IMG/VR virus record: IMGVR_UViG_2565956607_000008 | Location: 1-20,816 of that record | Direction: 5' to 3' (one strand) | DNA: 20,816 nt | Source: a virus | Lineage: Duplodnaviria; Heunggongvirae; Uroviricota; Caudoviricetes | Part shown: in pieces, positions 4,929 through 17,113 of the stretch | Layout of the letters: the number at the start of each line of letters is the position of its first letter | Position numbering within the stretch: position 1 is the stretch's first letter | Position numbers and translations under genes: made by a program | The notes under the pieces: generated by a model | Seen by the model: the letters and a program-made list of their open reading frames with translations, nothing else | What the model was told of the DNA's origin: nothing | The model's database searches: none

Positions 4929-6245
4929 ATGGAAATGATATTTAATGAAGATAAAGATATTGAAAATGCATTGCAGTGGCTATCTAAAACTCTACCAGAA
5001 CCTAATTCATTGTTTGATAGAATGTGTCTGGCACAAGAGAGTTATATTAAAGAATCGGCCTTGAAGGTTAATATTGGAAAGGAATCGAAAATAGAATGGC
5101 ATGGATGTGATGTTGTCGCAGGTTTTTTCTCTCAAGCTAAATCCTATCTTGATAATCGACGTTCTTATGATATTTCAGCTGCATCTAAAATACTTCCTTG
5201 GGTGAAACAACTTGGTGTTAATGTTGAATATCTTAACAATATTCCAGGTGCGGTAGAACGTGCTAAAAGGATGTTGGAAAGTTATACCGTTTATCCGGAT
5301 AATGCATTGTTTGAATTAATATTAGCAGGAAATTATGCGGCTAAAGGTTTCGATGTTGAGTTTATACCTGAGCAGAAAGGAATAGCTAAAACTCCTGAGT
5401 TTAAATGTAGCTTTGATGGTAAGGCTCTTTTTGTTGTTGAATGCAAAAGATTAAAAAAGGGGCAATACGCCCAACAAGAGGAGTCGGCTCATTCAACAAG
5501 AGCTTCTTTTATTGAATCTCGTGTACATCTGAAAAGAATGAGTGTCTGGATGGATGTCACATATAAATGTGAAGTAAATGAAACACCGGACGATTATCTT
5601 TTAAAACATTTATGTAATTATTATGGGAAAGAATATTCCTGGAGTGATGACTACGGTAGTGGTTTTATAAAGCCTGCAAATTTGCGTAGGGTGAATGATG
5701 ATATTAAATTGAACGGTTCTCTATCATTACACACCAAATTGGCAAGACTAATTAAAACATCTCCACTCGATGGTGAGTTTTACAATGTTTATGCGTTTGG
5801 TCGACCAGATGAACGAGATCCACGTTTTTTCTCTAAAATTAATTATGCAACATTACTGACATGGCGAAATGTAAGCGAGGTGTCATTAGAAAACAGGTCC
5901 AGGCATATCACTAAACATTTAAAAGAAATTGAAGATCAAATATCAAATAATGGACTTGGTGTAGGGCATTTAGTTATTGATGCTGACGTACAAAAAGATG
6001 TCGCTGATAAACGGAGGGAAAAAAATATTGAGGCTGCACTTTCTTTCCGGATAAAGTCCAAGCTTGTTCGGTTAAATATTCATTATCTTGTTCCTCGTGT
6101 TGATGAAGATAATTCGTGGCTGGTGGACGAAACTCTTGAATTTTTCAGCGGTGACGAGTTGATTAGTCATTTGTTTCCTGAGGTGAAATTATTTTCAGGG
6201 ATGGAACTTTTTGAAAATGATTTGCCTGCATGGCATCAGAAATGA
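4929..6245 (+). CDS. AT-rich cargo protein with a PD-(D/E)xK nuclease-like motif (about 438 aa)
   Basis: ATG at 4929 preceded by GGGG (ORF track uses TTG at 4908). Residues GFDVEF...x...FVVECKRL give a D...ExK pattern. Immediately downstream of the integrase and followed by an intrinsic terminator. Confidence 0.6.
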   Translation: MEMIFNEDKDIENALQWLSKTLPEPNSLFDRMCLAQESYIKESALKVNIGKESKIEWHGCDVVAGFFSQAKSYLDNRRSYDISAASKILPWVKQLGVNVEYLNNIPGAVERAKRMLESYTVYPDNALFELILAGNYAAKGFDVEFIPEQKGIAKTPEFKCSFDGKALFVVECKRLKKGQYAQQEESAHSTRASFIESRVHLKRMSVWMDVTYKCEVNETPDDYLLKHLCNYYGKEYSWSDDYGSGFIKPANLRRVNDDIKLNGSLSLHTKLARLIKTSPLDGEFYNVYAFGRPDERDPRFFSKINYATLLTWRNVSEVSLENRSRHITKHLKEIEDQISNNGLGVGHLVIDADVQKDVADKRREKNIEAALSFRIKSKLVRLNIHYLVPRVDEDNSWLVDETLEFFSGDELISHLFPEVKLFSGMELFENDLPAWHQK

Positions 6246-11453: not shown

Positions 11454-12396
11454 ATTAACAGGATACGTCTGGGACGCTTGTGCATCTTCGGGGATGAAGC
11501 TATCCAGCGTGGCAATCATGGCGCGCCTGGCTGACTTCAGCAACGATGAGGGTGTTTGCTGGCCTTCTATTGCGACCATATCCCGTCAGATTGGCGCTGG
11601 TGAAAGTACTGTCAGAACGGCGATAGCTGCACTTGAGAAAGAGGGGTGGCTCACTCGTACGCAGCGCCGCAACGGCAACCGTAATGCATCGAACGTCTAC
11701 CAGCTCAACGTTTCCAAACTACAGAAAGCGGCATTTTCTCACCTGTCAGTTTCTGACACATCAAAATCTGACGCGTCAAAATCTGATGCGTCAAAAATTG
11801 ACCCCTCAAAATTTGATGCGTCGGAATCCATCAAAAAAACCGGTTTTGACCCGTCAGAATCTGGTGGGGATCCGTCAGTAAAATCAACTACTGATCCATC
11901 AGATATAAATCCTTCTTGTCCGGACGCTTCGCAACCGGACGAACAGGGCTCTGCTGATGAATTTCTGTCACGACATCCTGACGCGGTGGTGTACAGCGCT
12001 GCAAAGCGGCAGTGGGGCAGCCAGGACGATTTAACCTGCGCTGAGTTCATTTGGGGAAAAATTATCAGCATGTACGAACTGGCGGCTGAAAGTGATGGTG
12101 AGGTAGTTCGCCCTAAAGAACCAAACTGGACCGCATGGGCGAATGAGGTTCGCCTGATGGTGATGCAGGACGGGAGAACCCATAAACAAATTTGCTCACT
12201 TTTCAAGCGCGCCAACAAAGATTCGTTCTGGTGTAAAAACGTGCTCAGCCCGTCGAAGCTGCGGGAAAAATGGGATGAGCTGTCGTTAAAACTATCTGCT
12301 CCACTCAATAGCTCCCGCCAGGAATCGTCCATTTCGCGAGCCAGCTTCGACGGGGTTGATTACTCATTGCCAGAAAACTCGGGGTTCCGCACATGA
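11443..12396 (+). CDS. Replication initiator, lambda O-like architecture (317 aa)
   Basis: N-terminal winged-helix-like region, then pentapeptide repeats (SKSDA-like) encoded by 15-bp DNA iterons, then C-terminal domain; stop overlaps the dam start (ATGA). Confidence 0.7.
   Translation: MSTKLTGYVWDACASSGMKLSSVAIMARLADFSNDEGVCWPSIATISRQIGAGESTVRTAIAALEKEGWLTRTQRRNGNRNASNVYQLNVSKLQKAAFSHLSVSDTSKSDASKSDASKIDPSKFDASESIKKTGFDPSESGGDPSVKSTTDPSDINPSCPDASQPDEQGSADEFLSRHPDAVVYSAAKRQWGSQDDLTCAEFIWGKIISMYELAAESDGEVVRPKEPNWTAWANEVRLMVMQDGRTHKQICSLFKRANKDSFWCKNVLSPSKLREKWDELSLKLSAPLNSSRQESSISRASFDGVDYSLPENSGFRT
11751..11835. repeat. Iteron array inside the replication gene (putative prophage origin)
   Basis: Four to five tandem 15-bp units TCAAAATCTGACGCG / TCAAAATCTGATGCG / TCAAAAATTGACCCC / TCAAAATTTGATGCG containing TGACGCGTCA-type palindromes, followed by an A-rich stretch. 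Confidence 0.55.
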
Positions 12397-13202
12397 GCAA
12401 GCCATTTCTGAAATGGGCTGGTGGAAAGTATACCCAGCTGGCTGACCTGTTCGTGCATATCCCGGCAGGGAAACGCCTGATAGATCCATTCGTTGGTGGT
12501 GGGTCAGTATTCCTGAACAGCGAAAAGCACGCAGATTACCTGCTGGCGGACGTTAACCCGGACCTGATTAATCTGTATCAGATGTTAGCGGTCGTGCCGG
12601 ATGAAGTGGAATTGAAGGCCCGCTGGATGTTCGAGCACATGCGGTCACCAGATGGTTATGAGCTGATCCGTTCCGAGTTCAACGCTCAGACGCTGGATGC
12701 TACTGAACGCGCAGCTGCATTCCTGTATCTCAACCGGCATTGCTTCAATGGCCTGATGCGCTACAACCAGGCTAACAAATTCAATGTGGGCTGGGGAGGC
12801 TACAAGGCTCCGTATTACCCGATGGATGAGATGAAAGCCTTCGCGGCTATGGCGCATAACTGCGTATTCATGACTGCTGATTACCGTCGGACAATCAGCC
12901 TGGCCGGGAAAGGGGATGTGGTTTACTGCGATCCGCCTTACGAACCGATGCCGGGAACAGCCGGATTCACTGCCTACGCCGCTGGTGGGTTTAACTGGGA
13001 GAACCAGGTAGACCTGGCGAAGCAATGTGTATCTGCCTTTCACCGCGGGGCTCGGGTAGTAATTTCTAACTCATCCGCACCGAAGGTTCTCGATCTGTAC
13101 CGGGAGCATGGTTTTAACCTGCAATTCATCAAAGCGCGCCGTTCGATCTCCTGCAAAAGCAGTACGCGGGAAGTCGCCAAAGATGTCGTGGCTATCCTGT
13201 GA
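12393..13202 (+). CDS. dam: DNA adenine methyltransferase, Dam family (N6-adenine, orphan; 269 aa)
   Basis: Motif FLKWAGGK near the N-terminus and catalytic DPPY (VYCDPPYEP); no adjacent restriction endonuclease gene. Confidence 0.9.
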   Translation: MSKPFLKWAGGKYTQLADLFVHIPAGKRLIDPFVGGGSVFLNSEKHADYLLADVNPDLINLYQMLAVVPDEVELKARWMFEHMRSPDGYELIRSEFNAQTLDATERAAAFLYLNRHCFNGLMRYNQANKFNVGWGGYKAPYYPMDEMKAFAAMAHNCVFMTADYRRTISLAGKGDVVYCDPPYEPMPGTAGFTAYAAGGFNWENQVDLAKQCVSAFHRGARVVISNSSAPKVLDLYREHGFNLQFIKARRSISCKSSTREVAKDVVAIL

Positions 13203-14225: not shown

Positions 14226-14570
14226 ATGCGTGATATGTATGAAATTTTAGACCGCTGGGGAGCATGGGCTGCAGCTGATAGTAGTGGTGTTGATTGGAAA
14301 CCCATTGCCGCAGGTTTTAAAGGTTTGTTACCTCATGGAAAGAAAACACGTCATCAATGCGATGATGATGAAGGAATCATGATTGACGGCTGTGTAGCGC
14401 GATTGCGGAAGTATAAGCCAGAAGAGTATGAGTTAATAATTGCTCATTTTGTTATTGGTTTCTCATTAAGAAGCATCGCGAAGAAACGGAAGTGTTCTGA
14501 TGGGACCATCAGGAAGGAATTGCAGACTGCAATGGGGTTTGTAGATGGTTGTTTAGAAATGGTTAACTGA
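14226..14570 (+). CDS. Late-gene antitermination protein Q (QuuD-like family; 114 aa)
   Basis: MRD...LDRWGAWAA...DWKPIAAGFKGL...RHQCDDDEG...DGCVARL...CSDGTIRKELQTAMGFVDGCL closely follows the pattern I recall for DLP12-type Q antiterminators. Confidence 0.8.
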   Translation: MRDMYEILDRWGAWAAADSSGVDWKPIAAGFKGLLPHGKKTRHQCDDDEGIMIDGCVARLRKYKPEEYELIIAHFVIGFSLRSIAKKRKCSDGTIRKELQTAMGFVDGCLEMVN

Positions 14571-14594
14571 AGTCTTAATGTGACTTCAGTTAAC
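14562..14594. terminator. Perfect 13-bp-stem hairpin (33-bp palindrome) between convergent Q and the reverse-strand cassette
   Basis: GTTAACTGAAGTC-TTAATGT-GACTTCAGTTAAC; overlaps the Q stop codon; only weak U-tracts on either side, so it may be a bidirectional terminator or a protein-binding palindrome. Confidence 0.4.
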
Positions 14595-14606
14595 ATTAAC
14601 GGCTAA

Positions 14607-15068
14607 TTAAAAGCTTTTAAGATATTTGCTTTTGATTTTTTCACTAACACTTTGTAATTCATGCAGTGTTGTGCCAACTTTATCAGCTTCATATTTTGTG
14701 TCATTGGTACATGCTTGGCGCAACTCTGCTATGAAACCTGTATCTTTTGTGCGGCTTGCATCAAGGAGTTGAATGCGTTCACATATAAACTCAACATGCC
14801 GTACGGACGATGTAAATATGAAATAAGATACTCTTTTGTCTTTTTCTTTATTCTCAAGTAGTTCCAGCATTTCACTATAAATGAAATCTAACTTGTAAAA
14901 CAACTCGTCTATCAATCTGTTTATTTCAAGTTTTTTGAGATTGTTTGCATTATTTTTCCGCGCCAAGTAGGCAGTAACTATCCATCCAATGATAGTTAAA
15001 CATATGCCCACAATAGCAATTATGGTAGCTGGTAGTGCCCATAAATTTGGAGTAACGGCTTGTTCCAT
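14607..15068 (-). CDS. Cassette gene C: single-pass membrane protein with helical cytoplasmic domain (153 aa)
   Basis: N-terminal hydrophobic helix (LWALPATIIAIVGICLTIIGWIVTAYLA) then charged helical region; 1-nt TAATG overlap with gene B; GAGGGATG ribosome-binding site; AT-rich. Confidence 0.7.
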   Translation of the reverse strand: MEQAVTPNLWALPATIIAIVGICLTIIGWIVTAYLARKNNANNLKKLEINRLIDELFYKLDFIYSEMLELLENKEKDKRVSYFIFTSSVRHVEFICERIQLLDASRTKDTGFIAELRQACTNDTKYEADKVGTTLHELQSVSEKIKSKYLKSF

Positions 15069-15385
15069 TATTTGGCATCCCTCAGAGCATCATTGATATA
15101 AGTAACAACCTCGGCAACTAATGCCGGATCCTTACTTTTAAGATTTTTCTTTAGGTTGTTAATCTTATCTTTGCTGATTCCCTTTCGCACCAGTCCACCA
15201 AAGGCCTCCTCCAAAAATGAGGATCCATACCCGAAAACCCCGTCAAAGTCAACGCAAATTTCATCATTTTCCAGTATTGCAGGAACTAAATAAAATTCGC
15301 GGAATTTTTCGCCACTATTCTCTCCAAGCGACTCGTAGCGAGGGCCAGGATATCTGGAGAATTCCTTGATATATAAAGTTTTCAT
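15068..15385 (-). CDS. Cassette gene B: STAS-like (DUF4325-like) small protein (105 aa)
   Basis: VDFDGVFGYGSSFLEEAFGGL parallels the anti-sigma-factor-antagonist motif around the phosphorylatable serine; strong AAGGAGAAG ribosome-binding site; ATGA overlap with gene A. Confidence 0.7.
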   Translation of the reverse strand: MKTLYIKEFSRYPGPRYESLGENSGEKFREFYLVPAILENDEICVDFDGVFGYGSSFLEEAFGGLVRKGISKDKINNLKKNLKSKDPALVAEVVTYINDALRDAK

Positions 15386-16482
15386 GCCGCTTCTCCTTCA
15401 GTTGGTAGTGGCACACTCCACTCAACAATTGTACCATTGATGGATTTATGAGCATCCCACATCAATTCGGGCCTTGCTTTCTTCCTTTTAGTATATCTGT
15501 AGTTCCCCTTGTTTGATATGATTCTGAGTTGGGCATGTGTAAAATTATCTATAATTGATTGTAAATCCGTGCCGCCTTTCCCTCTGTAACCAAGTTTTGT
15601 TCTTGTGCGTTTAACCTGTAATGATGCTTTTATATGCTCTGAATCTAATTCAATAGGCTTGCCTATAATTTCAATAAGTTTTGATAAAACTCTTTCTCCT
15701 TGAGTTAATTTCAAAGTTTTGGGAATTCCAACTCCTAAATCGCATATGGATAAAATCAATTTATTATTCATTATTGCTGCAAAACACCACCATTTATTTT
15801 TAATGTTGTTCTTTTGCTTGTCGTATAGATCATCTCTATATGCGTGCTCTACCGAGTTGGACATCGCCTCAATTAGAGGTCTGTATAAATTAGTGTAATC
15901 CGTTCCCATTTTCTCAGTTACTGCTTCTAATAGTTTCCCAGCAATTGTAGAATCAACCAGTTCACCTCTAATAACCTCCCAGCACTTAACAGATGGGTTC
16001 TCTTTCATCTCTCGACCTTTTACCCCAAATGCAGAATATATACCAATACGGTTAAGTACGCTATCAACTACATGATGTTCGCCTTTCTGTGTAGTTTTGA
16101 ATGGAGGGCGAGTTACAGTGTATCTTATATCTGGATAGTTACTTTTTAAACTCTCCAGTTTTGCTAGTAAATATAATCCTGCAGCGGCCGATATGTAAAT
16201 CGTATTTCTGAAGCAAACATATATTTTTTGAGTTTTAAACTGCTCTTGCTTGGCTTTTTTTTCAATATTTTCAATAAAACTTATTACGTTGTCATGGTAA
16301 TTAGAGTTATAGATATCAAGAATAGTAGGTGCAACTATTTTTTCAGAATTTGATTTTCGTATGTTACCATTACGTTTGTATCTTTTGTGTTCGGTTGACT
16401 TTTTGCTTGCGTTTGCACGGAGAAACCTTTTTCTCCTTATTCTTTTTAACACTGAAGTATAGAGCTGTTCTATTTTTTTCAT
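15382..16482 (-). CDS. Cassette gene A: protein with basic N-terminal region and C-terminal GHKL/HATPase-like ATP-binding domain (366 aa)
   Basis: AAGGAG ribosome-binding site 8 nt upstream; N-box-like EAMSNSVEHAY (E205..N209..H213), G1-like CDLGVGI (D248xGxG), G2-like GYRGKGGTDL (about 299..308); AT-rich. Confidence 0.7.
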   Translation of the reverse strand: MKKIEQLYTSVLKRIRRKRFLRANASKKSTEHKRYKRNGNIRKSNSEKIVAPTILDIYNSNYHDNVISFIENIEKKAKQEQFKTQKIYVCFRNTIYISAAAGLYLLAKLESLKSNYPDIRYTVTRPPFKTTQKGEHHVVDSVLNRIGIYSAFGVKGREMKENPSVKCWEVIRGELVDSTIAGKLLEAVTEKMGTDYTNLYRPLIEAMSNSVEHAYRDDLYDKQKNNIKNKWWCFAAIMNNKLILSICDLGVGIPKTLKLTQGERVLSKLIEIIGKPIELDSEHIKASLQVKRTRTKLGYRGKGGTDLQSIIDNFTHAQLRIISNKGNYRYTKRKKARPELMWDAHKSINGTIVEWSVPLPTEGEAA

Positions 16483-16707
16483 TTTACTCGACTCCTTGAT
16501 GTAATAATCAGCTCAGTTTACAAAAACACTAACGCGTACGCAAAAACTATCGTAATCTGTTAAGAGTGGTCACTTCGACACGAACTTAAAACATATTGAA
16601 GCCTCGCTTTTGCGGGTTTTGTTCCGTTCAGGGCTCTTGGGTTGAGATGTTCTGCATGACACATCGCAAGTAAGCATCTTCTGGCGCCTTTGACAGAGTG
16701 TTACATA

Positions 16708-16737
16708 TTGACTAACACAAAGTTTACAAATTAGATT
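16708..16737 (+). promoter_or_regulatory. Putative late promoter (pR'-like)
   Basis: TTGACT (16708..16713), 17-18 bp spacer, TTAGAT/TAGATT (16731..16737); upstream of a non-coding leader ending in terminators before the lysis genes. Sequence-only prediction. Confidence 0.3.
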
Positions 16738-17010
16738 ATCGACATGGTGAATCCCCCTATGCGGTGGGGCGACCAGTCACTTACAGTGATCTGTAAATGC
16801 AGCGCGGGCCATGTCGACTGGGACATGCTCACCGGGAGGCACCCGGCACCATACAATGCTACTAAGCTATTTGGTAGTGGGGTTGCCGTTTCGGCTTCTC
16901 CAGCTATGTTTAAAAGGTAGTAACGGAAAACGAGCGCTCTCCTGGTAAATCGGTAGCTCGGACTATTAGGTGCGCCTCGTTCCGTTGCAGAATCAGTATT
17001 GCCTACCTTC

Positions 17011-17037
17011 TGCCCGCCCCTCTGAGCGGGCTTTTTT
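17011..17037 (+). terminator. Intrinsic terminator (tR'-like) in the late leader
   Basis: GCCCGC-CCCTCTGA-GCGGGC followed by TTTTTTT. Confidence 0.6.
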
Positions 17038-17083
17038 TCGCCATGAATAAGTCTCCCCGGCAAGATGAGGAACAAATCATTTG

Positions 17084-17113
17084 AGGCTGCGCTTATGCGC
17101 GGCCTTTTTCATT
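17084..17113 (+). terminator. Second intrinsic terminator upstream of the holin
   Basis: GGCTGCGC-TTAT-GCGCGGCC (8-bp stem with one G-U pair) followed by TTTTTCATTT. Confidence 0.5.

Follow-up and report, generated by a model that had tools for sequence, protein, structure and literature searches.

What purpose is served by three small, overlapping genes carried on the minus strand of a temperate phage genome? This question is raised by positions 14607-16482 of IMG/VR record IMGVR_UViG_2565956607_000008 (Duplodnaviria; Heunggongvirae; Uroviricota; Caudoviricetes), of which positions 1 to 20,816 were analysed here (hereafter the window, 20,816 nt). A preliminary description of the window, made from its letters alone, had read these genes as a GHKL-ATPase-like protein, a STAS-like protein and a membrane protein (genes A, B and C), and had suggested that a kinase/antagonist pair gates a membrane effector, most plausibly in phage defence. 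Our analysis supports this interpretation as essentially right and shows that the cassette is real, well delimited and widespread. Some anti-phage or competitor-exclusion role appears quite likely. With slightly less than even confidence, we further propose that the trio represents a large, unnamed, phage-encoded immune or exclusion family of about 1,000 strongly matching kinase clusters, in which a STAS-fused serine kinase with a basic nucleic-acid- or membrane-binding tail would phosphorylate a DUF4325 protein and thereby set free a new type of single-pass membrane effector. This family would occupy a rexAB-like niche in temperate-phage immunity operons across four bacterial phyla, and would probably respond to a trigger other than the single-stranded DNA (ssDNA) of CapK and VapK.

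The open reading frames (ORFs) lie exactly where they had been placed, all on the minus strand: gene A (366 aa, 15382-16482), gene B (105 aa, 15068-15385), whose DUF4325 STAS-like product is the presumed kinase substrate or antitoxin, and gene C (153 aa, 14607-15068), the presumed effector. The A/B and B/C junctions read ATGA and TAATG, and Shine-Dalgarno-like sequences AAGGAG (gene A; 16492-16497, minus strand), GAAGGAG and GAGGGA precede the three starts, in keeping with the strong ribosome-binding sites first described, and the trio is translationally coupled. These are real genes and not chance ORFs, because A has many homologues and the gene order is kept across phyla.

The product of gene A combines a basic tail, a STAS domain and an RsbW/SpoIIAB-class, serine-kinase-type GHKL domain with an intact ATP site, an assignment that rests on invariant GHKL boxes and on structural matches. 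The tail (residues 1-50; 16333-16482, minus strand) is helical, contains 18 Lys/Arg residues and has an isoelectric point of 11.6; it is present in 73/80 A-family members, with a median of 54.5 aa and 18 Lys/Arg. It is followed by a STAS-fold domain (residues 52-175; 15958-16329, minus strand) and a GHKL/Bergerat ATP-binding domain (residues 195-360; 15403-15900, minus strand). The motifs quoted in the preliminary description, EAMSNSVEHAY (aa 205-215), CDLGVGI (aa 247-253) and GYRGKGGTDL (aa 298-307), are present and correspond to the N-box (15838-15870), G1 box (15724-15744) and G2 box (15562-15591), all on the minus strand. In 53 aligned homologues, the most distant at 30% identity, E205-x3-N209, D248-x-G250-x-G252, R300-G-K-G303 and G350-T351 are invariant, and residues E205, N209, D248, G250, G252, R300, G301, G303 and T351 are each found in 16-17 of 17 loci retrieved through B alone. 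From the sequences, these residues are assigned to the intact N, G1, G2 and G3 boxes of a GHKL ATP site. An AlphaFold model built from the 53-homologue alignment (predicted local distance difference test score (pLDDT) 80.8, predicted template modelling score 0.78) places them on an alpha/beta sandwich, as in the GHKL (Bergerat-fold) superfamily. Foldseek matched the model to SpoIIAB, the P4 domain of CheA and GyrB, with fold matches also to RsbW and Topo II; the closest structures to the kinase domain are SpoIIAB, RsbW and SiaB.

Structure and profile methods were needed for this assignment, as no useful result was obtained when A was searched as a single sequence against Pfam, NCBIfam or PDB sequences. 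The sequence-library matches were phrog_3364 (PHROG, function unannotated) and NCBIfam RsbW, the latter at 13.1 bits (E = 0.045) against a cut-off of 145. This weak RsbW match and the structural similarity are what could be cited for an RsbW/RsbV-type pair with a housekeeping role in sigma-factor regulation, located in a prophage by chance, a reading that the distribution of the trio effectively refutes. No cognate sigma factor or PP2C phosphatase was found in the window annotation or among the neighbours of any locus, the genes are of low G+C content (GC), and in E. coli they are patchy, with the window version in 2/5,426 genomes and a second version in 24/5,426 (0.04-0.4%), always on mobile elements.

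The STAS domain of A carries Ala (A99) at the canonical phospho-Ser position, which is Ala in 54 of the 80 family members and Ser in 15. Since this position is mostly Ala, the domain is probably regulatory rather than a substrate, while in lineages with Ser it may be autophosphorylated or serve as a genuine substrate. An indexed search yielded 111 homologues of A, and an exhaustive hidden Markov model (HMM) search yielded 3,363 clusters of A-family kinases at 50% identity (E ≤ 1e-3), 983 of them with E ≤ 1e-30.

The STAS-like, DUF4325-like nature suggested for B was borne out by Pfam, where B passes the gathering threshold for DUF4325 (PF14213) with 52.8 bits against a cut-off of 23 (E = 3.2e-14), and by PDB profile matches to the STAS structure 3t6o and to VapS (9z7o). 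The predicted phospho-acceptor is a Ser55-Ser56 pair at the start of STAS helix 2, within GYGSSFLEEAFG (codons 15218-15223, minus strand). S56 does not vary among 12 diverse loci and S55 hardly varies, and the pair reads SS in 64/64 viral loci retrieved through the kinase; conservation was counted only in these kinase-retrieved loci, as retrieval by the GYGSSFL pattern would be circular. Distant versions of B read GTSF, GPSF, PSSF or GSSY at this motif. By alignment, the pair coincides with the N-terminus of helix 2 in 3t6o (GSSF motif) and with the S48 region of VapS, which is the position that is phosphorylated in SpoIIAA, CapS and VapS (PMC13373217). Separately, B (15068-15385) matches positions 343-439 of the 441-aa profile phrog_5816 (E = 2.7e-16), which indicates that longer phage proteins ending in a DUF4325 domain exist as well. 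Such proteins, which may be fusions of a kinase or an effector with a STAS domain, could reveal interaction partners.

Gene C had been described as encoding a single-pass membrane protein, and its product indeed has one strongly hydrophobic segment, at residues 11-35 (ALPATIIAIVGICLTIIGWIVTAYL; 14964-15038, minus strand). A Kyte-Doolittle 19-residue mean of 2.5 was obtained for the homologue in locus L002, which is 79% identical. The structural model (pLDDT 83.3) features a helix over residues 11-72, of which 11-35 form the transmembrane part, followed by three more helices. Because Lys/Arg residues come after the transmembrane segment, the positive-inside rule predicts an N-out, C-in topology in the inner membrane, with a cytoplasmic helical bundle and a periplasmic part of only about 10 residues. 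A profile search found 35 relatives, in which W10, R117 and T121 are invariant, R117 and T121 as part of an ELRQAxTxD motif. C has no Pfam, NCBIfam or PADLOC family, and a fold search of the model against the PDB gave no significant match, only generic four-helix bundles (E ≥ 0.73), and no pore-forming signature. The fold of C has no characterised relative. A holin identity was considered and rejected, as the weak PHROG match behind it (E = 0.037) reflects the transmembrane segment only.

The closest functional precedents for the trio are two recently described kinase-STAS systems. CapK, with an HTH-STAS-GHKL architecture (HTH, helix-turn-helix), phosphorylates CapS, a STAS-wHTH protein (wHTH, winged HTH), on an ssDNA signal (Chambers et al., EMBO J 2026; PMC13373217). 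The three genes of the related vapKSC operon specify a STAS-GHKL kinase, a STAS antitoxin in which Ser48 is conserved, and the PIN toxin VapC; VapK phosphorylates VapS, which frees VapC, and the system protects against phage Bas42 (PMC13373217). The trio and VapKSC have the same three-gene order, a kinase that consists of STAS and GHKL domains with no N-terminal HTH, and, as second gene, a small DUF4325 STAS protein in which the Ser that opens helix 2 is conserved. They also share a DxGVGIP G1 box and an RG-G G2 box, and both are linked to mobile elements and defence genes. VapS itself is a DUF4325 protein (PF14213, E = 2.7e-17; sequence from Appendix Table S2 of PMC13373217), which accounts for a 2017 observation that one VapC clade is 'transcriptionally coupled to DUF4325 genes' (PMC5499597). 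In profile comparisons, A matches CapK over both the STAS and GHKL domains (E = 1.2e-5, probability 81%) and VapK over the GHKL domain (E = 2e-4).

The two also differ. Whereas the third gene of VapKSC encodes a PIN nuclease, C has no PIN or other Pfam match and is predicted to be all-helical with a transmembrane segment; VapK lacks the roughly 50-aa basic tail of A; and the trio, unlike VapKSC, occurs mainly in prophage lysogeny modules. In layout, the trio therefore reads as a sister of VapKSC and not a member, with the kinase architecture, the STAS gene and the gene order in common but neither the toxin nor orthology of the kinase. The VapKSC paper (PMC13373217) and its 69 supplementary files mention no membrane-protein or DUF4325 variant. 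CapK-CapS likewise pairs a STAS-GHKL kinase with a STAS substrate. However, CapK has an N-terminal HTH where A has a basic helix, and CapS represses a downstream immune operon through a C-terminal wHTH, whereas B has only 105 aa and no DNA-binding domain. Pfam detected no HTH or wHTH in A or B, and Q, integrase or portal genes, not an immune operon, lie downstream of the trio.

The preliminary description did not recognise this combination as a named defence system. PADLOC 2.0, whose models include Rst_3HP, PD-T4/T7/Lambda and PDC, gave no matches for the window trio at E ≤ 1, and noise-level matches only for three divergent trios and VapK. Rst_3HP, defined as 'three genes with no clear predicted domain' in a P2 hotspot (PMC9122126), was rejected as an identity since PADLOC matched it neither to the window trio nor to the three divergent trios. 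In DefensePredictor (PMC13092281), HATPase appears only in an unrelated predicted system, and a literature search with DUF4325, STAS-like anti-phage terms, accessions and PHROG identifiers found the trio nowhere described.

The order of A, B and a small third gene is kept across phyla, adjacent genes being separated by -26 to +21 nt. All three genes were present in 11/11 genome loci examined. The trio occurs in Buttiauxella, Pectobacterium, Erwinia, E. coli, Serratia, Vibrio, Pseudoalteromonas, Psychromonas and Amphritea, in two metagenome-assembled genomes of Alphaproteobacteria and one of Arcobacter, in an isolated phage, Marinobacter AS1, and on Pasteurella, Leptospira and Acinetobacter plasmids. 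A genome contig scan yielded 8 loci only, while scans of viral contigs were far richer: IMG/VR holds 78 contigs with a relative of A and 157 with the B motif. Among 83 distinct viral B loci, all three genes were recognised by HMMs in 68 and a further 13 combine A and B with a third gene of 134-212 aa, which gives 81/83; of the two left, one is a fragment and one lies at a contig edge. In none of the 83 loci did the third slot show a PIN gene. The co-occurrence across genomes that the preliminary description had proposed as a check is thus found, and the trio genes travel together among phage accessory slots.

These slots are predominantly those of lysogeny genes. In 69 of 79 viral loci the upstream neighbour is co-oriented with the trio, and in 39/79 it is a CI-type repressor (29 Peptidase_S24/HTH and 10 P2/186-type). 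Downstream neighbours in the 79 loci include integrases (9), P2-type portal genes (9) and Q (3), as well as restriction or restriction-modification (RM) enzymes and a PLD protein. P2-like prophages of Pectobacterium and Erwinia have the order CI, trio, integrase, while a Serratia P2-like prophage has gpA, trio, portal, which corresponds to the gpA-gpQ old/tin anti-phage hotspot of P2 defined by Rousset et al. (PMC9122126). On a Vibrio fluvialis island, the neighbours of the trio are HipA, nSTAND3-AAA and a pair formed by an M78 peptidase and a Beta_protein. The second E. coli version lies in the nin region, adjoining hok, and plasmid copies adjoin HepT/MNT and RelE. This distribution is as expected for a lysogen-expressed accessory system repeatedly captured by mobile elements. 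In V. fluvialis L026 (10120-11455; also L027 and L028), a second, minimal trio comes straight after the full one. It consists of a 187-aa GHKL-only kinase with neither basic tail nor STAS domain, a DUF4325 protein that shares the GFGSSFLEEAFGGL motif, and a transmembrane protein of 147 aa, which shows that some lineages can do without a STAS domain fused to the kinase.

The lysogeny-module niche invites comparison with classical exclusion genes. Lambda RexAB and lactococcal Sie2009-type genes are co-oriented just downstream of CI, or lie between repressor and integrase, and the trio shares with them both this niche, and thus expression in lysogens, and a membrane component. RexAB is not known to have a kinase or STAS component, and no sequence relationship between the trio and these exclusion genes was found, though none was looked for. 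Lactococcal Sie proteins are N-terminally anchored membrane proteins encoded between repressor and integrase, which is also the commonest position of the trio. C could therefore be a membrane-anchored superinfection-exclusion protein that blocks DNA injection, or a sensor, with A and B regulating it, or with A as the true effector that phosphorylates phage or host proteins. The lack of a pore-forming signature fits such a role, as does divergence, which is fastest in C (20% identity to the E. coli version in locus L005, compared with 33% for A and 43% for B), a pattern expected for a phage-contacting surface. However, about 10 periplasmic residues offer little surface to block injection from outside, and VapKSC, with a matching kinase-STAS-effector order, has its toxin in third place. 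We consider this explanation unlikely.

Slightly less probable still is that the trio serves the mobile element itself, as an addiction or stabilisation (toxin-antitoxin) module or as a device for timing lysis or lysogeny. The RelE and HepT/MNT modules beside the small-plasmid copies would suit the former, and the latter is suggested by the lysis cassette that adjoins the trio in the window, given that membrane depolarisation triggers holins. Against this, only the 3 loci with Q among the 79 occupy the Q-lysis slot, most being in lysogeny operons; simple post-segregational killing has no need of a kinase sensor; and VapKSC and many other toxin-antitoxin systems protect against phage.

By analogy with VapKSC, we infer kinase activity for A, binding between B and C, toxicity of C and a phage phenotype for the whole. 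In the resting lysogen, B would bind the cytoplasmic bundle of C and keep it inert, in the manner of an antitoxin. A signal linked to infection would activate A, possibly a nucleic acid sensed through the basic tail or the STAS/GHKL interface; a nucleic acid is considered because ssDNA is the signal for CapK. Active A would phosphorylate B on Ser55/56, and B~P would release C, which could then oligomerise in the membrane and collapse membrane integrity or potential. As a result, the infected cell would be arrested or killed, or the incoming phage blocked, so that the lysogen population and its resident prophage would be protected from competitors. We give an even chance to this specific scheme, in which the trio would be a mobile, prophage-borne, phosphorylation-gated effector module.

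Several observations weigh against it. C is unrelated to VapC, so the interaction between B and the effector is not transferable by homology, and the hydrophobicity of the third gene product is only borderline in 7/83 loci. An HMM of the A family (234 sequences) scores VapK at 24.5 bits and CapK at 15.1 bits, VapK not being significant at database scale, which makes A a separate sister family and not VapK. The cassette encodes no phosphatase that could reset B~P. Finally, a trigger of ssDNA or DNA damage seems self-defeating where the cassette adjoins an S24-type repressor, as it often does; ssDNA is an uncertain trigger here because it would also fire the system during SOS induction of the prophage itself.

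A different wiring of the same proteins, a classical energy-sensing partner switch, would have A sequester C or another target until unphosphorylated B displaces it. A would normally inactivate B by phosphorylating it, and a fall in ATP/ADP on infection would stall the kinase and free the effector. SpoIIAB, RsbW and SiaB, the closest structures to the kinase domain of A, act in this way; with no phosphatase encoded, B would be mostly phosphorylated at rest; and the extra STAS domain of A, with Ala at its phospho-site, could serve as an intramolecular pseudo-substrate. Yet in VapKSC, the only characterised relative of the same layout, the STAS protein binds the effector and not the kinase (crystal structure 9Z7O, PMC13373217), and no sigma factor or other obvious partner of A is present in the window annotation or among the neighbours. 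The SpoIIAB-SpoIIAA, RsbW-RsbV and SiaB-SiaC modules also differ in having a PP2C phosphatase and a sigma factor as output (a diguanylate cyclase for SiaB-SiaC), while the trio is phage-carried, with a kinase fused to its own STAS domain and a membrane protein as output. We regard a partner switch of this type as improbable.

If release of a membrane effector by phosphorylation of B is validated, the trio would add a third output, and the first membrane effector, to the repressor and the PIN toxin already known for the kinase-STAS switch of the CapK/VapK type. The kinase-STAS pair would then be a general plug-in switch for unrelated effectors (repressor, PIN nuclease, membrane protein), and the case for bacterial immunity relying on a modular trigger based on phosphorylation would be stronger. 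By kinase clusters, both strong and total, the A family is at least as abundant as VapKSC, for which 289 loci have been reported. Its members cluster in the lysogeny operons of temperate phages that infect, among others, Klebsiella, E. coli, Serratia and Vibrio, so the trio probably shapes phage-phage competition and the outcomes of phage therapy in clinically important hosts. At less than 2.2 kb and with its own conserved putative promoter, the cassette is directly testable.

This promoter was found by comparative alignment, a simple promoter scan having missed it. The putative sigma-70 promoter of the trio (16515-16543, minus strand) has a -35 TTGCGT, a 17-nt spacer and a -10 TAAACT, and is overlapped by a perfect palindrome, GCGTACGC (16534-16541, minus strand). 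An 18-mer upstream of A, TTTTTGCGTACGCGTTAG, is invariant in five relatives despite diverging flanks; every locus of the close clade has it some 47-62 nt ahead of A, and it occurs once in the window. The conserved 18-mer region is probably the cassette's own promoter with an operator. An invariant element, TTTGCGTACGCGTTAG (16529-16544, minus strand), contains the palindrome and overlaps the -35 and spacer of the putative promoter; its conservation in all close relatives is stricter than that of coding sequence, and it is possibly the operator. Despite this putative operator, no trio protein has a recognisable DNA-binding domain.

In RefSeq annotation, the prophage is lambdoid and integrated next to a tRNA-Arg gene, with the order integrase, LexA-like repressor with Cro, replication genes, Dam methylase, DUF968 and antiterminator Q, after which the trio lies on the opposite strand, followed by holin, GH108 endolysin, terminase, and head and tail genes. 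RefSeq labels A and C 'hypothetical' and B 'STAS-like domain-containing'. The claim that the operon is distinct from the phage backbone is upheld by base composition: the trio coding sequence has a GC of 36.1%, and the whole cargo (14571-16700) 36.8%, compared with 51-52% in the flanks. Among 5,426 complete E. coli genomes, the 2.4-kb trio region is 100% identical in the p10A and p10B chromosomes only. The prophage backbone and the exact trio proteins are otherwise found predominantly in Klebsiella pneumoniae, which accounts for most of the about 140-190 contigs with identical trio proteins, none of them with a functional name. This predominance, together with just two E. coli genomes, suggests that a Klebsiella-type prophage was transferred recently across genera into E. 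coli p10A/p10B.

The left flank of the cargo slot is formed by antiterminator Q (14226-14570, plus strand; RefSeq; Pfam Phage_antitermQ, E = 1.5e-46). At this boundary, a perfect 13-bp inverted repeat (GTTAACTGAAGTC / GACTTCAGTTAAC, 14562-14594) spans the Q stop codon in the 36 nt that separate Q from the convergent gene C. The repeat may mark the insertion boundary, limit convergent read-through or form a bidirectional hairpin; no U-tract is present at 14562-14594, so a role as a terminator is uncertain. At the right edge, homology to trio-free Klebsiella phages restarts at 16674, and is followed on the plus strand by a late promoter-like, sigma-70-like site (16708-16737) upstream of the holin and endolysin genes, an STnc100-type leader RNA (16715-16907; Rfam match of 76 bits against a gathering score of 47) and, downstream of this RNA, two strong terminators (17012-17031 and 17083-17106). 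Together, these elements look like a lambdoid late promoter and leader for Q antitermination, in which case 'STnc100' may simply be the leader RNA of this phage. With Q on the left and late-promoter-like elements on the right, the cassette is placed between Q and the late promoter, a slot that holds different cargo in related phages.

Two further genes of the prophage deserve mention. The Dam-type methylase (12393-13202, plus strand) matches PADLOC 'orphan methyltransferase' models (E = 2.5e-88) and is probably an anti-restriction self-protection of the phage and not part of an RM system. Directly after the integrase, in a second low-GC patch (35-38%), an ORF of 438 aa (4929-6245, plus strand) has no match in Pfam or PADLOC; it is a further orphan cargo gene, in a slot beside the integrase, and possibly a second accessory or defence candidate.

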